UHGV virus genome: UHGV-0039399 | Source: a virus | Length of the DNA: 40,347 nucleotides | Direction: 5' to 3' (one strand) | Shown: positions 7,688-35,849 of the stretch, piece by piece | Numbering within the stretch: position 1 is the first letter of the stretch | Layout: each line of letters opens with the position of its first letter | Translations under genes and position numbers: made by a program | Notes under the pieces: generated by a model | What the model was told of the DNA's origin: nothing | What the model saw: the letters and a program-made list of their open reading frames with translations, nothing else | Databases searched by the model: none

Positions 7688-7741
7688 AATCTGATCTCCT
7701 TATATCCTTGATGATACTTAAAAAAATCATCTTCGTTAATT

Positions 7742-7779
7742 GCCGCACTTCCAGCGGCTGACCAGATTGTTAAAGAGCA
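7742..7779 (-). promoter_or_regulatory. candidate nutL (boxA TGCTCTTTAACAA plus boxB hairpin GCCGC-TGGAAGT-GCGGC)
   Basis: On the minus strand, an exact rrn-type boxA is followed 6 nt later by a 5-bp-stem hairpin, between the putative PL and the N-like gene. Confidence 0.55.
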
Positions 7780-7821
7780 AGTAAATCTCTTTTCCCTATC
7801 TTGCTTCCTCCTTTTGCTCGC

Positions 7822-7850
7822 AATATACGCCACGTAAAAACACCAGTCAA
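7822..7850 (-). promoter_or_regulatory. candidate PL promoter (-35 TTGACT, 17-bp spacer, -10 TATATT)
   Basis: Near-consensus sigma70 hexamers on the minus strand, upstream of nutL and the N-like gene. Confidence 0.5.
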
Positions 7851-7949
7851 CACATTTTGTATACTTTTTTGTAAAATTTATAAGCCATTGATATTTAAAC
7901 AATAAACATAGCTTTCTGTTTACGTTTTGGTGTTTTTATGGCAAAGAAA

Positions 7950-8620: not shown

Positions 8621-8925
8621 ATCGCTACCCTATAACCTAAAAAATTTTGATGCAAGTCACAAAATGTATTTTTCAATCCTTGATCTATTAACAACATTCT
8701 GTAAACTTGCTGACAAGGTAAGGCCATAGTTGCAAGGATGCAAGGAAAAAGATAAGGGAAAGCACAAAAGGCAAAAGCCTTAAGCTCTTTAAAAATCCGG
8801 TGGCGCTGCAATGCGTAAAACAAATATCACGCAACGGCGGGATCTGTTAAGCGGTCAATCACTGCTATCTAATGCCAATGGGATGCCCGCCCGCGCGTTC
8901 ACTCTAACCATAGGAGAAAACACGA
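8621..8925. promoter_or_regulatory. immunity-region divergent promoter/operator region (PRM/PR-equivalent)
   Basis: 305-bp AT-rich intergenic region between cI and the first rightward gene; contains TGCAAGG direct repeats and an ACAAAATGT motif also present near PL. Confidence 0.5.
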
Positions 8926-9182: not shown

Positions 9183-10100
9183 ATGAAGTGGTTTAAACAT
9201 GATAGCGATGCGAACCGCGACGAAAAACTTCAAAACGTTTTGTTAGATTATGGCCTGGAAGGTTATGGGCTTTATTGGTATTGCCTCGAACTGATAACTT
9301 ATGACGTAGATCAGCACAACCTCAATTTTGACCTTCGACATGATGCCAGAATCATCGCGCGTAACGTCGGATCGACTGAGAAGCGCATTGAGGAAATGAT
9401 GAAATACTTTATCGAAATTGGTCTATTCGAATGTTCTCAGGGGCATATAACTTGTTTAAAGTTATTAAAAAGGCTGGACCAATCAATGACATCTAAAAGC
9501 GCATATAGGGCAGCCATAAACACAGCGAAGGAGCAATTAAAATTAGAAAAGCTAATCAATACAGCGCCAAAGGGTCATGATGAGGTCATGATTGGGTCAT
9601 GTCAGGGTCATGATAGGGTCATGACCGGGTCATGGCAGGGTCATGAATTAGAATTAGAAGAAGAAAGAGAAAAAGAAAAAGAAAAAAACATATTGATCAG
9701 CGATGCTGATCGAAACGCTTTCGAAGACATCTTCTGGCCTGCATACCCACGGAAGGTTAACAAGCAGGCAGCGTTTAAGTCATTCAAAACGAGAGCAAAG
9801 GAATGGGTGAAGGAAAACAAATCAACTGTCCAGGCTTTCGCGGAAATGCTGGTTAAAGATCTTGAGCGCAGGAAAGGTTGGTTCGGTAGCGACAAGTTGC
9901 ACCCAACAACATATCTGAACCAGAAACGCTGGCTTGATGAACCGGAAGGAGGTAACAACCAGGATAGCAATGTTGAAGGTAAGAAGCTGCGCCGCATCGT
10001 CGGGAAGAGTGGTCAGATTTACGAACGAATGTTAACGGATGATGAGTATAACGAATATCTCCGACGGTTCGCGGAGTGGCAGAAATCACAACACGCTTGA
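9183..10100 (+). CDS. replication initiator / replisome organizer (O-like)
   Basis: N-terminal MKWFKHDSDANRDEKL...YGLYWYC domain typical of phage replisome organizers; iteron array embedded in the coding sequence as in lambda O. Confidence 0.75.
   Translation: MKWFKHDSDANRDEKLQNVLLDYGLEGYGLYWYCLELITYDVDQHNLNFDLRHDARIIARNVGSTEKRIEEMMKYFIEIGLFECSQGHITCLKLLKRLDQSMTSKSAYRAAINTAKEQLKLEKLINTAPKGHDEVMIGSCQGHDRVMTGSWQGHELELEEEREKEKEKNILISDADRNAFEDIFWPAYPRKVNKQAAFKSFKTRAKEWVKENKSTVQAFAEMLVKDLERRKGWFGSDKLHPTTYLNQKRWLDEPEGGNNQDSNVEGKKLRRIVGKSGQIYERMLTDDEYNEYLRRFAEWQKSQHA
9573..9649 (+). repeat. seven direct GGTCATG iterons at exact 11-bp phasing
   Basis: GGTCATG starts at 9573, 9584, 9595, 9606, 9617, 9628 and 9639. 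Confidence 0.75.
9573..9713. promoter_or_regulatory. candidate origin of replication (iterons, purine/A-rich tract, GATC-containing palindrome)
   Basis: Iterons are followed by an A/G-rich stretch (9646-9690) and the inverted repeat GATCAGC-gat-GCTGATC with two Dam sites; this mirrors ori-lambda inside gene O. Confidence 0.65.
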
Positions 10101-11238: not shown

Positions 11239-11271
11239 GTATACATTTTGTGAACCGGAGGAATTAACATT

Positions 11272-12390
11272 ATGTGTCAAAGAAAAATCTCGGATGAGGA
11301 ACTTATCACTGAATATAACAATGGTTTAACGTACAAACAGATCGCTGAAAAGTATGGCATGTCAAAACGCAATGTCGAACGCCTGGGCGCAAAACTGGCG
11401 AAGCGCGGTTTAATATCAACGCGTCGCGCTCCTGGTTTTGGTGTTAATGGCGAGTCGTTGCTAGTCGATAAAAACGGCAATGTTATCATGCGCTGGATTA
11501 AAACAGCCCGTGACCGCGAAGAAATGGAACAGCTAATGGAAGCGGCCCGCGACGCTTTAACGGATGAAATACCACGCGCGGAGGCTGTGCCAGTGCCGGA
11601 AATTGATTTTCAAAAAAGCCTGGCCCTTTATCCGGTGTTTGACCTGCACATCGGGGCGCTTGCTCACAAAGCGGAATGTGGCGAGAGCTACGACACTGGG
11701 ATCGCTGAACGCGTGTTAAATGACTTCTTTGACTACGCCGTTGGCGCTGCCCCTATGAGTGAAAAAGCGGTTCTGCTTCTCGGTGGCGACCTGCTTCACA
11801 CTGACGGATTGTTGCCAGTGACGCCATCAAGCAATCACGTTCTTGATTGCGATAGTCGCTATGCAAAACTTGTTTATGTGGCGATCCGGGCGGTACGTCG
11901 TGCGGTCGGGAAAATGTTGCTGAACCACAAGGATATTGAAATTCAGGTATTATCAGGCAACCACGACCAGTCTGGTATGATTTGGCTACGTGCTGCGCTG
12001 GCGGCTTTTTACGAAGATGAACCACGCGTGACTGTTGATGTGTCACCTACTATCGTACACCACACGCAGTACGGGAAAACATTCCTTGCTTACCACCACG
12101 GGCACACTATCAAAAAACCGGAAAACCTATTGGCTGCTTGCGTGGCTGACTGGCGCGAAGATTTCGGCAAGTCTGCGGCTGTTTACGCCCACTGCGGGCA
12201 CTGGCATCATCAAAGGATGATTGAATCATCGTTGGGCGTTGTTGAGTATCACGGCACGTTAGCTGGCAAGGATGCGTATTCGACTAATGGAGGATGGCGG
12301 TCGCGTCGCCTGGCAGCGGTTATTATTTACAGCCCGGATCATGGTGAAATCGGGCGCTTTGTTTATTACCCTGAATTTTCCATTTTGTAA
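11272..12390 (+). CDS. HTH domain fused to a calcineurin-like metallophosphoesterase
   Basis: N-terminal HTH (LTYKQIAEKYGMSKRNVERL), then phosphoesterase motifs in order: DLH, GGDLLH, SGNHD, HHGH, GHWHH; GGAGG RBS. Confidence 0.6.
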   Translation: MCQRKISDEELITEYNNGLTYKQIAEKYGMSKRNVERLGAKLAKRGLISTRRAPGFGVNGESLLVDKNGNVIMRWIKTARDREEMEQLMEAARDALTDEIPRAEAVPVPEIDFQKSLALYPVFDLHIGALAHKAECGESYDTGIAERVLNDFFDYAVGAAPMSEKAVLLLGGDLLHTDGLLPVTPSSNHVLDCDSRYAKLVYVAIRAVRRAVGKMLLNHKDIEIQVLSGNHDQSGMIWLRAALAAFYEDEPRVTVDVSPTIVHHTQYGKTFLAYHHGHTIKKPENLLAACVADWREDFGKSAAVYAHCGHWHHQRMIESSLGVVEYHGTLAGKDAYSTNGGWRSRRLAAVIIYSPDHGEIGRFVYYPEFSIL

Positions 12391-28637: not shown

Positions 28638-28690
28638 TTTATCACCTTGTCATTTTGTGATCGCCATCACGCTAAATCATACCAAAACGG

Positions 28691-28718
28691 TTGATAGCGT
28701 TTTTACAATATGTATATT
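28691..28718 (+). promoter_or_regulatory. candidate sigma70 promoter for the L-M cassette (-35 TTGATA, 16-bp spacer, -10 TATATT)
   Basis: Near-consensus hexamers about 20 nt upstream of the first cassette ORF; the CAAAACGGTT motif sits just upstream. Confidence 0.45.
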
Positions 28719-28734
28719 GTACTCAAAAGGAAGC

Positions 28735-28920
28735 ATGGTTAACAAAATGGCGCGGAGGTGTGAGGTGGATGATAAGGTGTGGAGGTTGACGGTATTCCTT
28801 AGTGATGGCAGGGAAATGACTGTGGCCCTGTATAAAGATGAAGGCGAGGCACTTACTGACGCGCTCTTACTCGCTGAAGATGAACGAGTTTTTGGATACA
28901 GGATCGAACCTGTCAAATGA
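28735..28920 (+). CDS. small acidic protein (61 aa), L-M cassette gene 1
   Basis: ORF with AAAGGAAG RBS on the strand opposite the tail operon. Confidence 0.5.
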   Translation: MVNKMARRCEVDDKVWRLTVFLSDGREMTVALYKDEGEALTDALLLAEDERVFGYRIEPVK

Positions 28921-28933
28921 GAGGTTAACAAAA

Positions 28934-29284
28934 ATGCAAAAATACAGTTTAGAGGTCTGGACTGATAAATGTGAATGGGAGCGCATGGGCCTGTTTGATA
29001 CATACGCCGCAGCGCGTGATGAAGGTCGTGAGTTACTTCGCTGTTGGTCTGGCGCTCGTGATTTTGATATTACTCCGGTCCAGGTGCCGGATATGGTGGA
29101 AGAGATGAACCCGAAAGATATTAACTTCAACGTCAATGTTGAATTTTCAGACTCTATGGATCAGGCTTGCCCTGGTGAAATTCACGCAAAAGGTTTTCCG
29201 GCAGACGATCCAGAAGCAAAACGCGAATACGAAAAAGCTGCGAAAGACTTCTGCATTGATAACCTGGGCGCATTCGATAAATAA
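28934..29284 (+). CDS. acidic protein (116 aa), L-M cassette gene 2
   Basis: GAGAGG RBS; start refined from the track ORF 28838-29284; strongly acidic C-terminal half. Confidence 0.55.
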   Translation: MQKYSLEVWTDKCEWERMGLFDTYAAARDEGRELLRCWSGARDFDITPVQVPDMVEEMNPKDINFNVNVEFSDSMDQACPGEIHAKGFPADDPEAKREYEKAAKDFCIDNLGAFDK

Positions 29285-29293
29285 GGGGGACAC

Positions 29294-29542
29294 ATGGGTC
29301 GGCGCAACCACGGCGATTATGTGTACACGCTGAAACAGGCCGCCCGCCTCGTCGGGTATCATGAGCACGAATTTATTGATTTGCTGATTGAGCGCGGGAT
29401 ACTTTACCAGGTCTGTCTGACGCTGTACCCAAAAGCGAAATACCTACAGGAAAAGTTATTTATCATCATGACGGACGAAAACCAGGTAAATCACTCATTC
29501 GTCACTGATAAAGGTGTCAACTATCTGCGTGATAACTTATAG
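29294..29542 (+). CDS. small HTH DNA-binding protein (82 aa), L-M cassette gene 3
   Basis: GGGGG RBS; N-terminal excisionase/MerR-like HTH (YTLKQAARLVGYHEHEFIDLLIERGIL). Confidence 0.55.
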   Translation: MGRRNHGDYVYTLKQAARLVGYHEHEFIDLLIERGILYQVCLTLYPKAKYLQEKLFIIMTDENQVNHSFVTDKGVNYLRDNL

Positions 29543-29551
29543 GCGGCAATT

Positions 29552-29623
29552 ATGGATGAGGTTATCGAGAATGTTTTGGTAGTGGCTGGCGCAATTGCCA
29601 TAGTTTATGCCTTTCTGAGCTAA
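29552..29623 (+). CDS. 23-aa hydrophobic peptide, L-M cassette gene 4
   Basis: Manually found ORF MDEVIENVLVVAGAIAIVYAFLS; very short, tentative. Confidence 0.25.
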   Translation: MDEVIENVLVVAGAIAIVYAFLS

Positions 29624-29634
29624 TGGGGTGGATT

Positions 29635-29772
29635 ATGAAAATCGAAGTTTTAGCATTAATCGCAATGGGCTTGATCGTCTTCGGTGTTCACGCTGCTGGT
29701 TGGGACTGGGCTGCAATAGCAAACAACATGGCGCACGCTCACCCAATGAGCTTGCTGTATATTCACTACTGA
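29635..29772 (+). CDS. 45-aa membrane peptide, L-M cassette gene 5
   Basis: Manually found ORF MKIEVLALIAMGLIVFGVHAAGWDW...; followed immediately by a strong terminator. Confidence 0.35.
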   Translation: MKIEVLALIAMGLIVFGVHAAGWDWAAIANNMAHAHPMSLLYIHY

Positions 29773-29777
29773 CAAGA

Positions 29778-29808
29778 AAAACCCCGCTTCGCGCGGGGTT
29801 GTTTTTAT
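29778..29808 (+). terminator. rho-independent terminator ending the L-M cassette
   Basis: CCCCGC-ttcgc-GCGGGG hairpin plus T-run; same stem and flanks as the terminator at 21305-21335 but with a reverse-complemented loop. Confidence 0.7.
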
Positions 29809-30359: not shown

Positions 30360-30533
30360 GATCCCCCCCCTCTCATAAGTTACATATTGCATACATCTTT
30401 ACGCGCTTCTACGCGAAAAATGATAACTTCGTCACAAGAATTATACCAAGTTTACGAAATGGCTTCACACAGGACGCAACAAGATGTATACAGAAAGCAA
30501 GAAGAGAAAGCAGTACCAACAAAGGGGGCCAAT

Positions 30534-30689
30534 ATGGAACGCTATGTAGTGGTAATGCTAAACAAAGCATTCGAACAGGTGGAAGTTGCGATTGTGAAGG
30601 GTTTTGATGATGCATTCAAATACGGTCAATTCATGATGAATGCAAAAGAAGATGAATACCGTGATTTCTTCCTGAAAGTGGTCAACTGA
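30534..30689 (+). CDS. small protein (51 aa), M-tape-measure cassette gene 1
   Basis: AAGGGGG RBS; opposite strand to the tail operon; the track's longer ORF 30330-30689 has weaker start context. Confidence 0.45.
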   Translation: MERYVVVMLNKAFEQVEVAIVKGFDDAFKYGQFMMNAKEDEYRDFFLKVVN

Positions 30690-30709
30690 TTGATTGCGCG
30701 GGGTGAGTT

Positions 30710-30964
30710 ATGAAATTGGTGGCGATTGGCAAAAACCTGAAAGCACAGAAAAACGCACAGGAACGGATCATCAAAAAAGGCAAGGCTTTATTAAATTCTT
30801 TCCTGAAAAAAGAGGCCAACCCCAAAAAATTACGCGATGGCTACGGCTATAAATTTGACATCAACCCCGATTGGCGGTTATTCAGCGAAGATTTAAAGAT
30901 GTGGTTAATTATTGACCATCTGGAATACAACCGCCACTGTGGCGTAAAAGGGGCGCATAAATGA
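30710..30964 (+). CDS. basic Lys-rich protein (84 aa), cassette gene 2
   Basis: ORF with GGGGTGAG RBS-like context. Confidence 0.5.
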   Translation: MKLVAIGKNLKAQKNAQERIIKKGKALLNSFLKKEANPKKLRDGYGYKFDINPDWRLFSEDLKMWLIIDHLEYNRHCGVKGAHK

Positions 30965-30972
30965 GGTGAAAT

Positions 30973-31065
30973 ATGGATGACGATAAATTCACCTGGCGGG
31001 AGATCTGGAACATCTGGCAGGTGATGTTTGCTCGCAGCTACATAGCAAGAAACGGCAGGTTGTGA
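30973..31065 (+). CDS. 30-aa peptide, cassette gene 3
   Basis: Manually found ORF with GAGGTGA RBS; tentative. Confidence 0.25.
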   Translation: MDDDKFTWREIWNIWQVMFARSYIARNGRL

Positions 31066-31083
31066 TTTGCGGAGGAAAATAAA

Positions 31084-31254
31084 ATGAAAAACCCGGCAAA
31101 TAAAAGCAATGTAAAACGTATGGCATGGGTGCTAAAATATATGGATAGCAAAGGGGATACATATACATGTCCATTTTTCAGGTATACTGACGCGGTATTT
31201 GCCAGAAGTGTACACGGAGGGAAAATTGAAAGAGGGTATACAAGATTTGAGTAA
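31084..31254 (+). CDS. small protein (56 aa), cassette gene 4
   Basis: Manually found ORF MKNPANKSNVKRMAWVLKYMDSKGDTYTCPFF...; GGAGG RBS. Confidence 0.4.
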   Translation: MKNPANKSNVKRMAWVLKYMDSKGDTYTCPFFRYTDAVFARSVHGGKIERGYTRFE

Positions 31255-31289
31255 ATTTATTCAGTAAATTAATAACATAATGAAGGTTT

Positions 31290-31472
31290 ATGATGATTAT
31301 TCACGAGACTGAAGAATGCAGAAGGATTGATCTTAGTGTTGAAGATGATGGAAGATTATGGATCGTTAGCGACTGCGAGATGATTGTAATAAACAAAAAG
31401 CAAGCTGACGAACTGATAAGAGCATTACAGCTTTATGCAAGCGGCGAATTTAAGAATGATGAAATTGAATAA
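31290..31472 (+). CDS. small acidic protein (60 aa), cassette gene 5
   Basis: ORF with GAAGG RBS, followed by a terminator. Confidence 0.5.
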   Translation: MMIIHETEECRRIDLSVEDDGRLWIVSDCEMIVINKKQADELIRALQLYASGEFKNDEIE

Positions 31473-31475
31473 AGA

Positions 31476-31506
31476 TAACCCCGGCATTGTACCGGGGTTT
31501 TGTTTA
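31476..31506. terminator. rho-independent terminator between the convergent cassette and tape measure gene
   Basis: CCCCGG-cattgta-CCGGGG hairpin followed by TTTTGTTTATTT. Confidence 0.65.
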
Positions 31507-33852
31507 TTTCCTGCGAGGTTGCAACATACCGCCAGGTCGTTGTGATTCCCTTGCCATCATTTTCATTGCTACGCGCTCCATCGTCTGTTCAAGTCTGCGA
31601 CCGTCTTCGTCGCTAAACCCGTTCGTGGTATGGACGTTTATGTTAACGGGCATATTTATGCCGCCACCATTGAAGAGATCACGGCCAGGAATCACCCTAC
31701 CATTCTCGCCAGGAATCATATACTGACGCCCGTTGCTCGTCTGGAATAGCTCAGGAATCCCGTGTTCACCTACGCGATACAGACTACCACCATTAACAGA
31801 ACCACCATTATAACGCCCGCCGCCAAAAATTGACGTTGCCAGCGACATGATCGCAGAAAGCGCCGCAGCACCAGCCGCCGCCCAGCTACCGCCAGTCGAT
31901 GCAGCAGTAGCCGCCGCAGCAGGGGCCGCCGCAGCCGCGATCTCACCCTGGGCAGCAACAGCGCCAGCCGTTGTACTTGCCTGGGTAGCTTTGCTTTGCG
32001 TTTCCATCATCAACTGATCTGCTATCCAGTTAGCGGCAATTTCTGATAGTTTATTGCCAACAGTATTGAGTATGCTGCTTCCCAGGTTGGCGAAAACCTC
32101 ACTTAGCGATTGAGTACCGTTTAGCAGTCCGGTAAGGGCATTACCCATGCCACCTTTCAGGCCGCTGACGCACGCACCAATCAGGCCGTTTGTGTCGCTT
32201 TGCGCCTGCCATTGTTCCCATTTCAGATCTCTGATCTGTTGTTCATATTCCAATAGAGCCTGTTTCTGTTGCGCCTCTGTAGCGCCCAGGTCTATTAGCA
32301 TTTGTTTTCGAACTGCCCATTCATTTTGCGCCTGCTTGATTGGGTCAATTTCTCCCTTAAGCTGGTCCATCGGGCTAACTATGTGGTCCCATTTATCGCG
32401 TAGCTCATCAACCGGGATCTGAGCTAATTCGTCCTTCAGTTCCTTGCCTATCCCTTTCTGCGCGGCCTTGTACTCAAGGAGGGTTATTTTGCCCTGGGCG
32501 AACGCAGCATCAATGGCCTTGCCGTTCTCCAGCGCCTTACGCATGGCTGCGGCGTCCTTGTTGTACTGGTCGGACACTTTTATACCTTCATCACCAAGCC
32601 GATCAGCTTCTGATTTCTTGTCCTTTTTGCCCTTTTTCCCTTTCTTCGGCTTACCAACTGGCTGATCGAATCCCGTGATCTTGCCATCGTCAGCCTCACC
32701 CTGTTTCTGCATAAACTCATCATAGGCGGCTGTGGCTTTTTCTATGTCATTCTTAAATGTCATGAATTTGCCAATGGTAGGGCCAAATTTCTTCTCGTTG
32801 TTGCTGTTTAGCTCTTCCTTGCGTTTGTCAATGATTTCCTTCATCCATTTGTAGCCATCCATTAGCGCCTTGATTGGCGTCACCATTCTGATGATTTCTT
32901 CCGCCACCTCTCCCGCTTTAACAGCAACATCGTCAAACATGTCGATGAACTCGCTACCAGCGGTTTTAAGTGTATTGAAGCAGGTTGCGGCGAATTTTGC
33001 GCCTTTACCTAATCCCTCAACGCCACCAGTGATTAAGTCTATTGCTGACACAACGCCATCTGATATGCCGAAAAGATCGTCTAGCTGTTCGACAAGCCCC
33101 ATTACCTCAACTTTAAGCTCGTTGAAGGCCATGCCGGACGTGCGCGGCAACTGTGCGAACTTCTCGTTCGTTTCCTGCGTGGATGCCTGGATCGCGTTGA
33201 GCATCCTTTCAGCCGTGATCTTACCGTCCAGCATTTCGGCGCGGAATTGACCCATTGATAACCCCATTTGGCGGGCCATTTCCTGTATGATTGTTGGTGT
33301 GTTGTCACGTATTGAGTTAAATTCTTCAGCCTGCAACACGCCAGCATCAATAGCCTGGCGGAACTGGCGCATGGAGTTAGATAGCTGTTCCGCAGACACG
33401 CCGCCCAGGTTGCCTAGTTTTTGCAGCGTGCTGACCAGGTTTAAGACCTGGCCTTCCGTAGCGGATGTATTTTTTAGCGATATAGCAAGCCCTTGCCACA
33501 GGTCGCCAGTGTCCTTGAGGCTTTGGCCTGTCTCTTTTGATATATCTTTCAGTCTGTTGAAAACGCGTTCCGTGGCCTCTGCTTCACCTGTAAGCAGTTT
33601 GATTTTCACGCGAAGCATTTTTGCTTGCTCCGCCATGTCAATAAACTGGCGCACAGCCTCCGCAGCAAGTAACAGATGGATGACCCTGGATAGTGCTTTG
33701 ATTGAAGTCTTAAGCGTATTCACCTGGCGGTCAGCGCGTTTTGCGCCACGCTCGATACTGTCAAAAGCCTGGTCTGCCTGTCGTTGAGCAACGAGAAGTT
33801 GACCAGTTTTTGCATCAACTTCGTAATAGATTGTACCTAAACTACCCGACAT
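31504..33852 (-). CDS. tail tape measure protein
   Basis: 782-aa, largely alpha-helical, Ala/Gln-rich ORF with a Gly-rich C-terminal region, positioned between tail chaperone and M. Confidence 0.9.
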   Translation of the reverse strand: MSGSLGTIYYEVDAKTGQLLVAQRQADQAFDSIERGAKRADRQVNTLKTSIKALSRVIHLLLAAEAVRQFIDMAEQAKMLRVKIKLLTGEAEATERVFNRLKDISKETGQSLKDTGDLWQGLAISLKNTSATEGQVLNLVSTLQKLGNLGGVSAEQLSNSMRQFRQAIDAGVLQAEEFNSIRDNTPTIIQEMARQMGLSMGQFRAEMLDGKITAERMLNAIQASTQETNEKFAQLPRTSGMAFNELKVEVMGLVEQLDDLFGISDGVVSAIDLITGGVEGLGKGAKFAATCFNTLKTAGSEFIDMFDDVAVKAGEVAEEIIRMVTPIKALMDGYKWMKEIIDKRKEELNSNNEKKFGPTIGKFMTFKNDIEKATAAYDEFMQKQGEADDGKITGFDQPVGKPKKGKKGKKDKKSEADRLGDEGIKVSDQYNKDAAAMRKALENGKAIDAAFAQGKITLLEYKAAQKGIGKELKDELAQIPVDELRDKWDHIVSPMDQLKGEIDPIKQAQNEWAVRKQMLIDLGATEAQQKQALLEYEQQIRDLKWEQWQAQSDTNGLIGACVSGLKGGMGNALTGLLNGTQSLSEVFANLGSSILNTVGNKLSEIAANWIADQLMMETQSKATQASTTAGAVAAQGEIAAAAAPAAAATAASTGGSWAAAGAAALSAIMSLATSIFGGGRYNGGSVNGGSLYRVGEHGIPELFQTSNGRQYMIPGENGRVIPGRDLFNGGGINMPVNINVHTTNGFSDEDGRRLEQTMERVAMKMMARESQRPGGMLQPRRK

Positions 33853-33890
33853 GATTTTACCTCACTAAAAAGTGTGATCCAGATCCATAT

Positions 33891-33934
33891 TTTATACAAA
33901 ATGTCTTCACTTCAACGTATACATTTTGTATAAA
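33891..33934. promoter_or_regulatory. perfect 14-bp inverted repeat TTTATACAAAATGT-N16-ACATTTTGTATAAA (candidate operator)
   Basis: Exact inverted repeat in the intergenic region between the tape measure start and the third opposite-strand cassette. Confidence 0.5.
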
Positions 33935-34101
33935 GAAGTCAAAGGAAGAGAGAGAAAAGAAGGTCGAAGGAATAAGGGATTAAGACTTGAGGCACAGCCA
34001 ACCGAAGGAACGAGGGAGGCGAAAACCACTAAAACTAACAGGAAACAGAAAAAGGATTTAAAAGACCGGATGAACCGGAGGAAGCAAAAGAGGATAAGAA
34101 A

Positions 34102-34188
34102 ATGAAAGGCTACTACCGACCCAACGAGCATGAGCATTATGCCGACTTTATCGAAGAAATGCTGAAAGCACTTAAAAACAAGAAATAA
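34102..34188 (+). CDS. 28-aa peptide, tape-measure-chaperone cassette gene 1
   Basis: Manually found ORF MKGYYRPNEHEHYADFIEEMLKALKNKK after a purine-rich leader. Confidence 0.3.
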   Translation: MKGYYRPNEHEHYADFIEEMLKALKNKK

Positions 34189-34201
34189 GCGGGGCGGGTG
34201 A

Positions 34202-34309
34202 ATGGACACAATCAAAACGGTTATAGATGTATATATTACAGCATGGTTAGCATTTAATGTGATGGCTGTGCTGGTGCTGGCAATGACAACCGAAGATAAA
34301 CGCAATTGA
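34202..34309 (+). CDS. 35-aa membrane peptide, cassette gene 2
   Basis: Manually found ORF MDTIKTVIDVYITAWLAFNVMAVLVLAMTTEDKRN. Confidence 0.35.
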   Translation: MDTIKTVIDVYITAWLAFNVMAVLVLAMTTEDKRN

Positions 34310-34319
34310 GAGGTGTATC

Positions 34320-34622
34320 ATGGAACTGGTAATTTGCTTCGTCGGATTCATCGCAACTATGGTTGTAGCTCAGAAAAAACACCTGAATATGCTCCCGGCA
34401 TTCTTTGGTGCGCTGATTTGTTGGCCTGCCGTATTGATTTACGCGCTGTGCGTTAACAAAAAGATGTTCAAACACTACGTTGATGCAGTGACTTTCGTAA
34501 GCATGGAGTTCCCGAACGCAACTGACGTACAGAAAGCACAGGTAGCAACTTACATTTACGATAACGTGTACGATATTCATGACCTGGATGAAGCAAGATG
34601 CCGATTCGCAGCATACAAATAA
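34320..34622 (+). CDS. membrane protein (100 aa; two TM segments plus soluble C-terminus), cassette gene 3
   Basis: GAGAGGTG RBS; hydrophobic N-terminal half; followed by a strong terminator. Confidence 0.6.
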   Translation: MELVICFVGFIATMVVAQKKHLNMLPAFFGALICWPAVLIYALCVNKKMFKHYVDAVTFVSMEFPNATDVQKAQVATYIYDNVYDIHDLDEARCRFAAYK

Positions 34623-34626
34623 AGAT

Positions 34627-34654
34627 AAAGGCCCGGTTAATTCCGGGCTTTTTC
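34627..34654 (+). terminator. rho-independent terminator ending the third cassette
   Basis: GCCCGG-ttaatt-CCGGGC hairpin followed by TTTTTCTTGTTT. Confidence 0.65.
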
Positions 34655-35317
34655 TTGTTTGCGTTTTTTCATCAATTCCAGCACCCTTTTAGCCGCTCCC
34701 ATTTGCTCATCATAATCACGTTTATTTATCTGAACGTTTGGCTTACGTTTCTCGTTTCTTTCGTCTGGCGGCGTTTTAGCGCGTACAGCGGCACGATACC
34801 CGGTCATGGTCATACCCCACGCCTCAGACTCAGACAATCCCAGGTGAGCAACGGCAGAGTAAACATACTCAAGGATGTCGAATGTCTGTTTATAATCGCC
34901 TTCCTGCTCATCGCTAACGTCTTCCTCCGGTCCGTCACCAATTAAACCGTGGAACATGCAGTGTTGCGCCAGTGTGATAACGTCGCTGGTGGGCATTAAT
35001 CCGGGTTTTAGTCTCAACTTACCCGAAGGAGTGAAGCTACATTCGCCCAATAACTGGCCTATTTCGCATTCTGAGCAACATTTCAATATGTGGATGGACG
35101 TTTGCACCAGTTCACCATAACAACGCGCCAGAATGCGATTGCGGAGGTCTGGATCAACTGGCATACGCCGTGGGTATTTGCCACCGTGAACCGTTGCGAA
35201 GTATTCGACCAGTTCCCTGTCACCGCCGATCTTAGCCATTGCAGCAAAGCAGGGATTAAATTCGTAACGTCTGCCATCAACCACAACCGCAAACTGTCCT
35301 GTTCGAACGTGAATCAT
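34637..35317 (-). CDS. putative tail assembly chaperone (G/GT position)
   Basis: 226-aa ORF between the tail tube gene and tape measure; AAGGTG RBS at the refined ATG; assignment by position only. Confidence 0.45.
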   Translation of the reverse strand: MIHVRTGQFAVVVDGRRYEFNPCFAAMAKIGGDRELVEYFATVHGGKYPRRMPVDPDLRNRILARCYGELVQTSIHILKCCSECEIGQLLGECSFTPSGKLRLKPGLMPTSDVITLAQHCMFHGLIGDGPEEDVSDEQEGDYKQTFDILEYVYSAVAHLGLSESEAWGMTMTGYRAAVRAKTPPDERNEKRKPNVQINKRDYDEQMGAAKRVLELMKKRKQEKARN

Positions 35318-35327
35318 AGTTGTCACC

Positions 35328-35356
35328 TTAAAAAATAAAGGGGCCAAGCGGCCCCG
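35328..35356 (-). terminator. rho-independent terminator after the major tail gene (attenuator)
   Basis: GGGGCC-loop-GGCCCC hairpin followed by CUUUAUUUUUU on the minus strand, 17 nt after the tail tube gene stop. Confidence 0.6.
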
Positions 35357-35372
35357 ATGTCAATATTTACTG

Positions 35373-35849
35373 TTACAATACAGGAACGTCACCTACTGTG
35401 ACCTTGCCAGCGCTTTCGCACTCAATTGACCAGGTGGACACATCGTCGTGCGGATCTTCTTCCTTAAAGGAAGTGCAAAGGAACGGACCCTCTGTTACAT
35501 CAAGCGGTGAAACGAGTTTCAACCAGACGTAAGGCTGCGCACCAGTTGTTTCGCCAGGGTTAATAACGTGGCGTTTAAGTGCTTTCTGGTTGTGGATCTC
35601 TTCGGTGCGGGATACGCCGTCGCCGGAGAAGGCAACAGATTTGTAAGTTACCAGTGATTCTTTTGTGTAGTCTGCTGATTTATCAGCGGTGGCGTCTGCG
35701 GTTTCCCATTCTACGGAAAGAGATTTGCCACGCATCATGCCTAACGCTTTATAGTCTTCTTCGTTTGGTTTCGTTTTAGGGCAGGCGATAGCGTAGAATA
35801 CGGCAACGTCACGGCCTAAGAACGAACCTTTTTCACAAGTCTGAGACAT
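35373..35849 (-). CDS. major tail (tube) protein
   Basis: 158-aa ORF in the V position, followed by an attenuator terminator; assignment by position and size. Confidence 0.55.
   Translation of the reverse strand: MSQTCEKGSFLGRDVAVFYAIACPKTKPNEEDYKALGMMRGKSLSVEWETADATADKSADYTKESLVTYKSVAFSGDGVSRTEEIHNQKALKRHVINPGETTGAQPYVWLKLVSPLDVTEGPFLCTSFKEEDPHDDVSTWSIECESAGKVTVGDVPVL

Follow-up and report, generated by a model that had tools for sequence, protein, structure and literature searches.

The purine-rich tract at 33935-34101 of the viral DNA analyzed here (genome UHGV-0039399, 40,347 bp, hereafter the window) is, on the reading that we favor with somewhat more than even confidence, the non-coding 5' untranslated leader of a plus-strand moron-type cassette, with a role of the accessibility type. 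A weak promoter set within an invariant inverted repeat would start transcription at ~33941, and the leader would run 161 nt to a strong Shine-Dalgarno (SD) sequence and a 28-aa gene, behind which come exchangeable cargo genes and a terminator. Because it is nearly all A and G, such a leader could not pair with itself, and the ribosome-binding site (RBS) would therefore be kept open; it would also offer several SD-like landing sites and, being poor in C, would by its composition be a poor target for Rho. We infer these effects on translation or Rho from the features described below. The unusual length of the leader is explained by the rare long allele that this phage carries; the tract is then one more moron 5' UTR, extreme in composition and ordinary in other respects. 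Of greater biological interest is what lies next to it, namely a constant module of promoter, leader, and micro-ORF placed before at least seven cargo sets, adjacent to the tape-measure gene.

Purine composition and coding potential of the tract

The original prediction had pointed to a tract of ~170 bp rich in A and G, and the strand composition check that we ran finds there the strongest purine peak of the window. Positions 33935-34101 (167 nt) are composed of A81 G50 C22 T14, i.e., 78.4% purine, and the maximal-scoring purine segment is 33932-34109 (79%). Over all 167-nt windows of the 40,347-bp sequence, the purine content has a mean of 48.3% (sd 6.9%); no peak on either strand is higher than the tract, which exceeds the mean by about 4.5 empirical sd, and the runner-up peak reaches 70%. 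At the predicted 5' end of the plus-strand transcript, a pure-purine run continues for 23 nt without interruption (33941-33963), the second longest in the window. The longest, of 33 nt (9656-9688), lies on the plus strand inside an ORF at 9183-10100 and directly follows four GGGTCATG iterons (9600-9688 altogether); iterons and purine run resemble, by analogy, an origin of the lambda type, which lies within the gene for the replication initiator.

Purine loading of the mRNA-synonymous strand is known as Szybalski's transcription-direction rule. The tract behaves likewise in that its purine excess is on the strand which carries the downstream genes, and other presumed leaders of the same phage are biased alike (cassette 2, 79%; PL-like early leader, 83%; PR-like leader, 72%). 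It is unlike the purine loading of coding regions in strength: the sense strands of 22 long ORFs of the window average 55% (range 50-60%), far below the 79% of the tract. Purine-rich leaders recur in this phage, and the tract stands out by length and not by kind; it can thus be regarded as the long allele of an ordinary, open, SD-rich 5' UTR.

A mechanical ORF of 59 aa, Lys/Arg-rich and with a TTG start, covers the tract on the plus strand (33926-34105), and an ORF of 132 aa covers it on the minus strand (33907-34305). Both frames are open in the window, and three GenBank records (mEp554, mEp044, and mEp010) carry minus-strand CDSs derived from PHANOTATE in the homologous region, so the tract might be thought to encode a protein, either the basic plus-strand peptide or a minus-strand product as annotated in these phages. 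We find this extremely improbable. All six frames across the tract hold stops in UMNK88, the closest long-form relative, where both ORFs of the window are broken by stops and frameshifts, and an indel of ~91 nt, which is not a multiple of three, shifts the frame; no open frame is conserved in relatives. The annotated minus-strand CDSs differ in length from phage to phage (61, 59, 33, and 39 aa), and they overlap in antisense the small ORF after the tract, whose variation pattern is that of plus-strand coding. The tract is non-coding on both strands. Translation of the basic TTG ORF, as had been suggested, is contradicted by the lack of frame conservation and by the position of the TTG, upstream of the predicted transcription start. 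We also checked the converse possibility, that the tract is simply the antisense of a real minus-strand gene; the 132-aa ORF is the candidate, and it fails on the same interruptions in UMNK88 and on the same frame-shifting indel. As judged from these alignments, the minus-strand "hypothetical proteins" over the region in the mEp554, mEp044, mEp010, and mEp515 records are probably spurious.

What follows the tract is a real gene. The 28-aa ORF (MKGYYRPNEHEHYADFIEEMLKALKNKK) at 34102-34188 on the plus strand is the first gene of the cassette in every relative, and the 28/29-aa ORF of the MKNYYRPNEHEHYADFIEEMLKALKNKK type is under purifying selection in all 39 loci compared, with a nearly invariant peptide: among 24 distinct nucleotide versions, variable sites at codon positions 1/2/3 number 5/3/15 and 6/2/16. 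On this third-position pattern we take the 28/29-aa plus-strand gene to be real. It always lies 10-13 nt upstream of the first cargo gene, with a conserved TAAGCGGGG junction, and no phage outside the mEp021 type was found to carry it. The mEp021 record lacks an annotation of the small ORF, which is overlapped by minus-strand CDSs in the mEp554, mEp044, and mEp010 records; an annotation fix therefore concerns both the probably spurious minus-strand CDSs in several mEp records and the conserved 28-aa plus-strand gene missing from mEp021. A real gene right after the tract, together with a plus-strand terminator that closes the cassette, agrees with the proposal of a non-coding leader before a plus-strand cassette.

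Promoter, leader RNA, and translation signals

The tract was predicted to be preceded by an inverted repeat, which we recovered as a perfect 14-bp pair with arms at 33891-33904 and 33921-33934 (100% complementary, 16 nt apart). The arms, TTTATACAAAATGT, are invariant in an alignment of 17 loci, and the spacer is variable. They enclose a predicted sigma-70-type promoter read from the sequence (33906-33934, plus strand), i.e., TTCACT (33906-33911), 17 nt, and TATAAA (33929-33934), such that the arms flank the -35 and cover the -10 element. The two hexamers score 4/6 and 5/6. In TATAAA the near-universal T at -7 is missing, which is why the site is absent from our promoter-scan list; no other plausible plus-strand promoter lies in the 249-nt intergenic region. 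The pattern TTCAC-N16-TGTATA has exactly two exact matches in the window, one at this promoter and the other at the head of cassette 2 (30464-30490). From the -10 element, transcription is inferred to start at ~33941, which would coincide with the onset of the pure-purine run. The layout shared with cassette 2, the invariant arms, and the real gene and terminator downstream on the same strand all lend support to a putative cassette promoter at this place.

Some further observations were made around the promoter. This promoter layout (AAATGGCTTCAC-N16-TGTATA) is repeated in the second plus-strand cassette, where a leader of 42 nt with 79% purine follows (30464-30534, plus strand). The core of the repeat arms (ACAAAATGT/ACATTTTGT) recurs at 7852-7863 beside the PL-like -35 element, at 8659-8669 in the PR/PRM-like region by the repressor gene, and at 11239-11251 just before a 372-aa ORF at 11272; a DNA-binding protein of the phage or the host may use it as a common operator. 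A CRP-like site, TGTGA-N6-TCCAT (33873-33888), with a TGTGAT half that does not vary among the 17 aligned loci, is centered ~60.5 bp upstream of the predicted start, the spacing of class I CRP-dependent promoters. On the other strand, the tape-measure ATG follows the same candidate site at a distance of 21 nt.

The predicted untranslated leader, counted from the putative start to the base before the ATG, comprises 161 nt (33941-34101, plus strand; 79% purine). Folding of 170 nt gave a minimum free energy (MFE) of -17.5 kcal/mol with z = -0.97 against dinucleotide shuffles, and RNAalifold on 13 short and four long leaders returned only a 4-bp CCGG-N5-CCGG hairpin (34066-34078) with invariant stems and a variable loop. 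None of the predicted pairs covaries (0/4 and 0/19), and no Rfam family matches inside 33935-34101 at E ≤ 10. It had been suggested that the leader is structured, or that the tract is a small RNA. A long non-coding leader with a conserved mini-hairpin would indeed be expected from a structured cis-regulatory RNA or a stand-alone small RNA; still, with such a z-score, no covariation, no Rfam match, and no terminator between the tract and the genes, we give these two ideas next to no chance. Nor does the tract look like a nut site: it contains no boxA (GCTCTTTAACAA-like), and its only 4-bp stem is the CCGG-N5-CCGG hairpin with the variable loop. Elsewhere in the window, a strong leftward promoter, TTGACT-17-TATATT (7850-7822, minus strand), is followed by a purine-rich leader, and in this PL-like leader (7740-7850, minus strand) there are a boxA-like GCTCTTTAACA at 7763-7773 and a GCCGC-N7-GCGGC hairpin at 7741-7757; the region probably corresponds to the nutL that has been described for mEp021. 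The PL-like leader and the tract share an 11-mer GGAGGAAGCAA and a 12-mer ACATTTTGTATA, which is suggestive and, by a rough estimate, borderline unlikely given the composition, and we do not claim homology between the two.

When the first ~300-390 nt of the transcript were folded by partition function, 72% of the leader and 46-48% of the coding part were predicted to be unpaired, and the SD-AUG window is unpaired at 0.95 in the long form of the leader and at 0.92 in the short form. An SD-like GAGGGAGG at 34012-34019 pairs with the anti-SD at a calculated -11.4 kcal/mol and GGAGG at 34077-34081 at -9.5 kcal/mol; the working SD is GAGGA at 34090-34094, 7 nt before the ATG. The ribosome standby model, reportedly that of de Smit and van Duin, offers a known parallel: like standby sites and A-rich, SD-rich leaders, the tract is a long single-stranded stretch upstream of a well-spaced SD, predicted to be 0.92-0.95 unpaired. 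Translation enhancers rich in A and U are bound by S1. Unlike these classical enhancers, the tract is A/G-rich, and its long and short alleles are predicted to be equally open. A translation-enhancing role of the leader is plausible on these folding models, and any such role would do without the full 170 nt, since most relatives lack more than half of it.

The purine motifs may also be read in another way, with the leader as a platform for CsrA (through GGA motifs) or Hfq (through A-R-N repeats), so that the cassette would answer to host physiology or the regulator would be titrated by the long allele. The 161 nt contain 11 GGA where 6.9 ± 1.9 are expected from composition (P = 0.027), and RGGA[T/A] occurs eight times where 3.1 are expected (P = 0.005); one GGA falls within the SD and one at the CCGG hairpin, and six of the seven triplets in the first 21 nt, read from the sequence, are A-R-N. 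In this density (one GGA per ~15 nt, one in the SD), the tract is like the CsrB/CsrC sponges and CsrA-repressed leaders. It is unlike CsrA-binding RNAs in that its GGA motifs lie outside hairpin loops in the predicted folds, that it lacks a terminator of its own, and that it matches neither CsrB/CsrC nor any other Rfam family. The enrichment over composition is modest with several motifs tested, A-R-N triplets are nearly inevitable in an A-rich purine run, and the extra motifs are absent from most relatives. We therefore regard a CsrA or Hfq platform as improbable.

Long and short leader alleles

Homologous loci were gathered from five mEp phages, phage MagusPhagus, eleven Escherichia coli prophages, IMG/VR contigs, and one metagenome contig, with the window counted in the totals, and leader length was counted as the bases that separate the TATAAA hexamer from the ATG. 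Of the 39 loci, 33 have a leader of 76-77 nt and the remaining six one of 167-169 nt, namely the window, UMNK88 (seen twice), and three further loci (L021, L035, and L041), which represent five distinct sequences. Purine content is 76-83% in both size classes. The tract that had been taken for a single leader is thus A/G-rich as described, but it is not one unit: ~91 nt of it (~33947-34037, plus strand) is an indel with no counterpart in most relatives, its boundaries approximate because the flanks are of low complexity. This extra segment, present in six of the 39 loci, carries the SD-like GAGGGAGG with no start codon after it. The proximal leader (34038-34101, plus strand), with the mini-hairpin, GGAGG, and SD, is common to all relatives. 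By this alignment, the leader of the window is a rare long allele, consisting of the common ~70-nt leader and ~91 nt of similar composition.

The extra ~91 nt must be dispensable, as most relatives do without it. It might be neutral filler, and so perhaps might the whole distal leader: an old indel carried along by recombination, whose composition mirrors the leader style of the phage. The piece is missing from 33/39 loci; it shows no structure, ORF, or family match, and the predicted accessibility of the RBS is unchanged by it, as the SD-AUG window is open in both forms. Three different cargo types and both small-ORF variants are found together with it, indicating that the indel assorts independently by recombination. 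Nevertheless, the five long forms all retain the purine content, and among them the extra piece has a mean identity of 89%, no lower than that of the adjoining coding DNA (small ORF, 88%; tape-measure gene start, 86%), the proximal leader and the promoter/repeat region both being at 93%. With an identity about that of coding DNA, the extra 91 nt shows no obvious decay and may have some function, and we find the filler explanation rather unlikely, preferring an open leader that exists in a long and a short allele. These two alleles provide a natural experiment on the effects of polypurine leaders on translation, Rho sensitivity, and convergent transcription.

We looked for a source of the extra piece in several collections. 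A blastn search (distant mode) with 33940-34050 as the query returned the UMNK88 prophage only from 5,426 complete E. coli genomes and nothing from 50,697 phage records. Exact 21-mer scans returned only a UMNK88-derived contig from IMG/VR and, from a set with one genome per species, only a chance match in an unrelated Bacteroidetes MAG. The metagenome scan yielded one further long-form phage. The idea that the extra piece is a diverged tandem duplication of the proximal leader was rejected, as 606/1000 and 275/1000 composition-matched shuffles scored at least as high as the real local alignments; TRF reported only a trivial 9-nt repeat. Substitutions in the leader comprise 16 A/G, five C/T, and six transversions (21:6 transitions to transversions), and the corresponding ratios at third codon positions are 9:6 and 11:5. 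The A<->G excess is only modestly above this third-codon baseline and looks too small to count as a sign of selection for purine status.

The cassette in the tail operon

Over 33700-34700, the window shows 90-94% identity to mEp554, mEp044, mEp010, and mEp021 and 86% to mEp515; on this nucleotide identity, the window is an mEpimmI (mEp021-group) phage of E. coli, a group of Nus-dependent temperate coliphages (PMC11893012). Its tail genes are on the minus strand, including those for the tail tube (35373-35849), a DUF6246/phrog_791 protein (34637-35347, assigned by domain and family match), and the tape measure (31504-33852). The plus-strand cassette sits antisense between the DUF6246 and tape-measure genes and consists, in order, of the tract, the 28-aa ORF, a hydrophobic 35-aa ORF (34202-34309) together with a 100-aa ORF with a hydrophobic N-terminal half (34320-34622), both cargo, and an intrinsic terminator (34627-34652, plus strand). 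The terminator has a 10-pair stem and a T run and is terminator-like on the minus strand as well; terminators are annotated at the homologous spot in the mEp021, mEp010, and mEp515 records.

The cassette is most likely a moron, i.e., an independent accessory transcription unit in a phage operon. It has its own terminator (34627-34652), and its base composition is below that of the flanks: G+C is 0.40-0.46 over 33900-34700, with a minimum of 0.33 at 33800-33949 in the promoter region, and ~0.47-0.55 in the flanking tail genes. Among collinear relatives the flanks are constant and the cargo is variable, and no empty site without the cassette was seen among the relatives compared. For a promoter of its own, the candidate is the TTCACT-17-TATAAA read from the sequence, the one without T at -7 that the promoter scan did not list. 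Gene 15 of HK97 is the reference moron of temperate phages (PMC3594210), and like it, the cassette lies between the tape-measure gene and a gene that follows the one for the tail tube, has its own terminator, a predicted promoter, and a G+C below its neighbors, and in the allele of the window carries small hydrophobic proteins. Unlike the HK97 moron, it is antisense to the tail operon, and it has a constant 5' module (promoter, purine-rich leader, and 28-aa gene) that precedes at least seven alternative cargo sets.

This cargo-swapping hotspot spans 34189-34636 and the same position in the relatives (L001-L042), with at least seven architectures after the constant 5' module: 35+100 aa, as in the window; 138 aa; 119 aa; 165 aa; 138+124 aa; 219 aa (annotated TagO-like) with 124 or 106 aa; 116+35+100 aa; and 116+54+107 aa. 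All of the sets end at the DUF6246 gene. The 28-aa, 35-aa, and 100-aa proteins matched no family in Pfam or PHROG. The cargo proteins would be reasonable candidates for exclusion or defense functions by analogy, because they occupy the same site as the HK97 superinfection-exclusion moron. Within the window, 20 nt of the proximal leader (34069-34088) are 85% complementary to the start of the 100-aa cargo ORF (34333-34352); the mEp554 version of this pairing matches less well by eye and shows no compensating changes.

The position of the cassette raises the question of the opposite strand, where the complement of the tract would be a C/U-rich untranslated stretch on the late mRNA, ~85 nt upstream of the tape-measure start, that could load Rho or bind S1 and so make the tape measure depend on the late antiterminator. 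The minus-strand RNA of 33942-34019 has 29 C and nine G, the third-strongest 78-nt window of C over G on that strand, and there are 44 YC dimers in the whole tract. On the late strand, ~780 nt from the DUF6246 stop to the tape-measure start seem to go untranslated, a promoter scan found no minus-strand promoter between these two genes, and both N-like and Q-like antitermination have been reported for the mEp021 group (PMC11893012). The late transcript is thus like a rut site (~80 nt untranslated, unstructured, and with C well above G) by composition only, as expected from orientation alone. Other top peaks of C over G on the minus strand also fall in the three antisense cassettes, and since sense strands are generally purine-loaded, this property is an expected by-product of cassette orientation. 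Most relatives carry only ~70 nt of the C/U-rich stretch. Furthermore, a Q-modified polymerase ignores Rho, and N-like and Q-like antiterminators would override Rho and terminators alike. A role of the opposite strand is, in our estimation, improbable.

One may go further and consider the promoter, the polypurine leader, and the 28-aa gene as a portable expression platform dedicated to exchangeable accessory cargo, in which the leader is a strand-asymmetric switch: it would be proof against folding and Rho on the cassette mRNA, and its C/U-rich complement on the convergent late tail transcript would load Rho or form a duplex. If this were true, tape-measure expression would be tied to late antitermination, the cassette would be silenced in lytic growth, and the long allele would strengthen the effect. 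We mention this as a quite improbable extension.

The cassette studied here is one of three on the plus strand that break up the minus-strand tail operon (28690-29800, 30400-31500, and 33900-34652). Each of them ends in a hairpin that is terminator-like both ways (29780-29800, 31477-31499, and 34627-34652), so that late transcription must pass three terminators and ~3 kb of antisense untranslated RNA.
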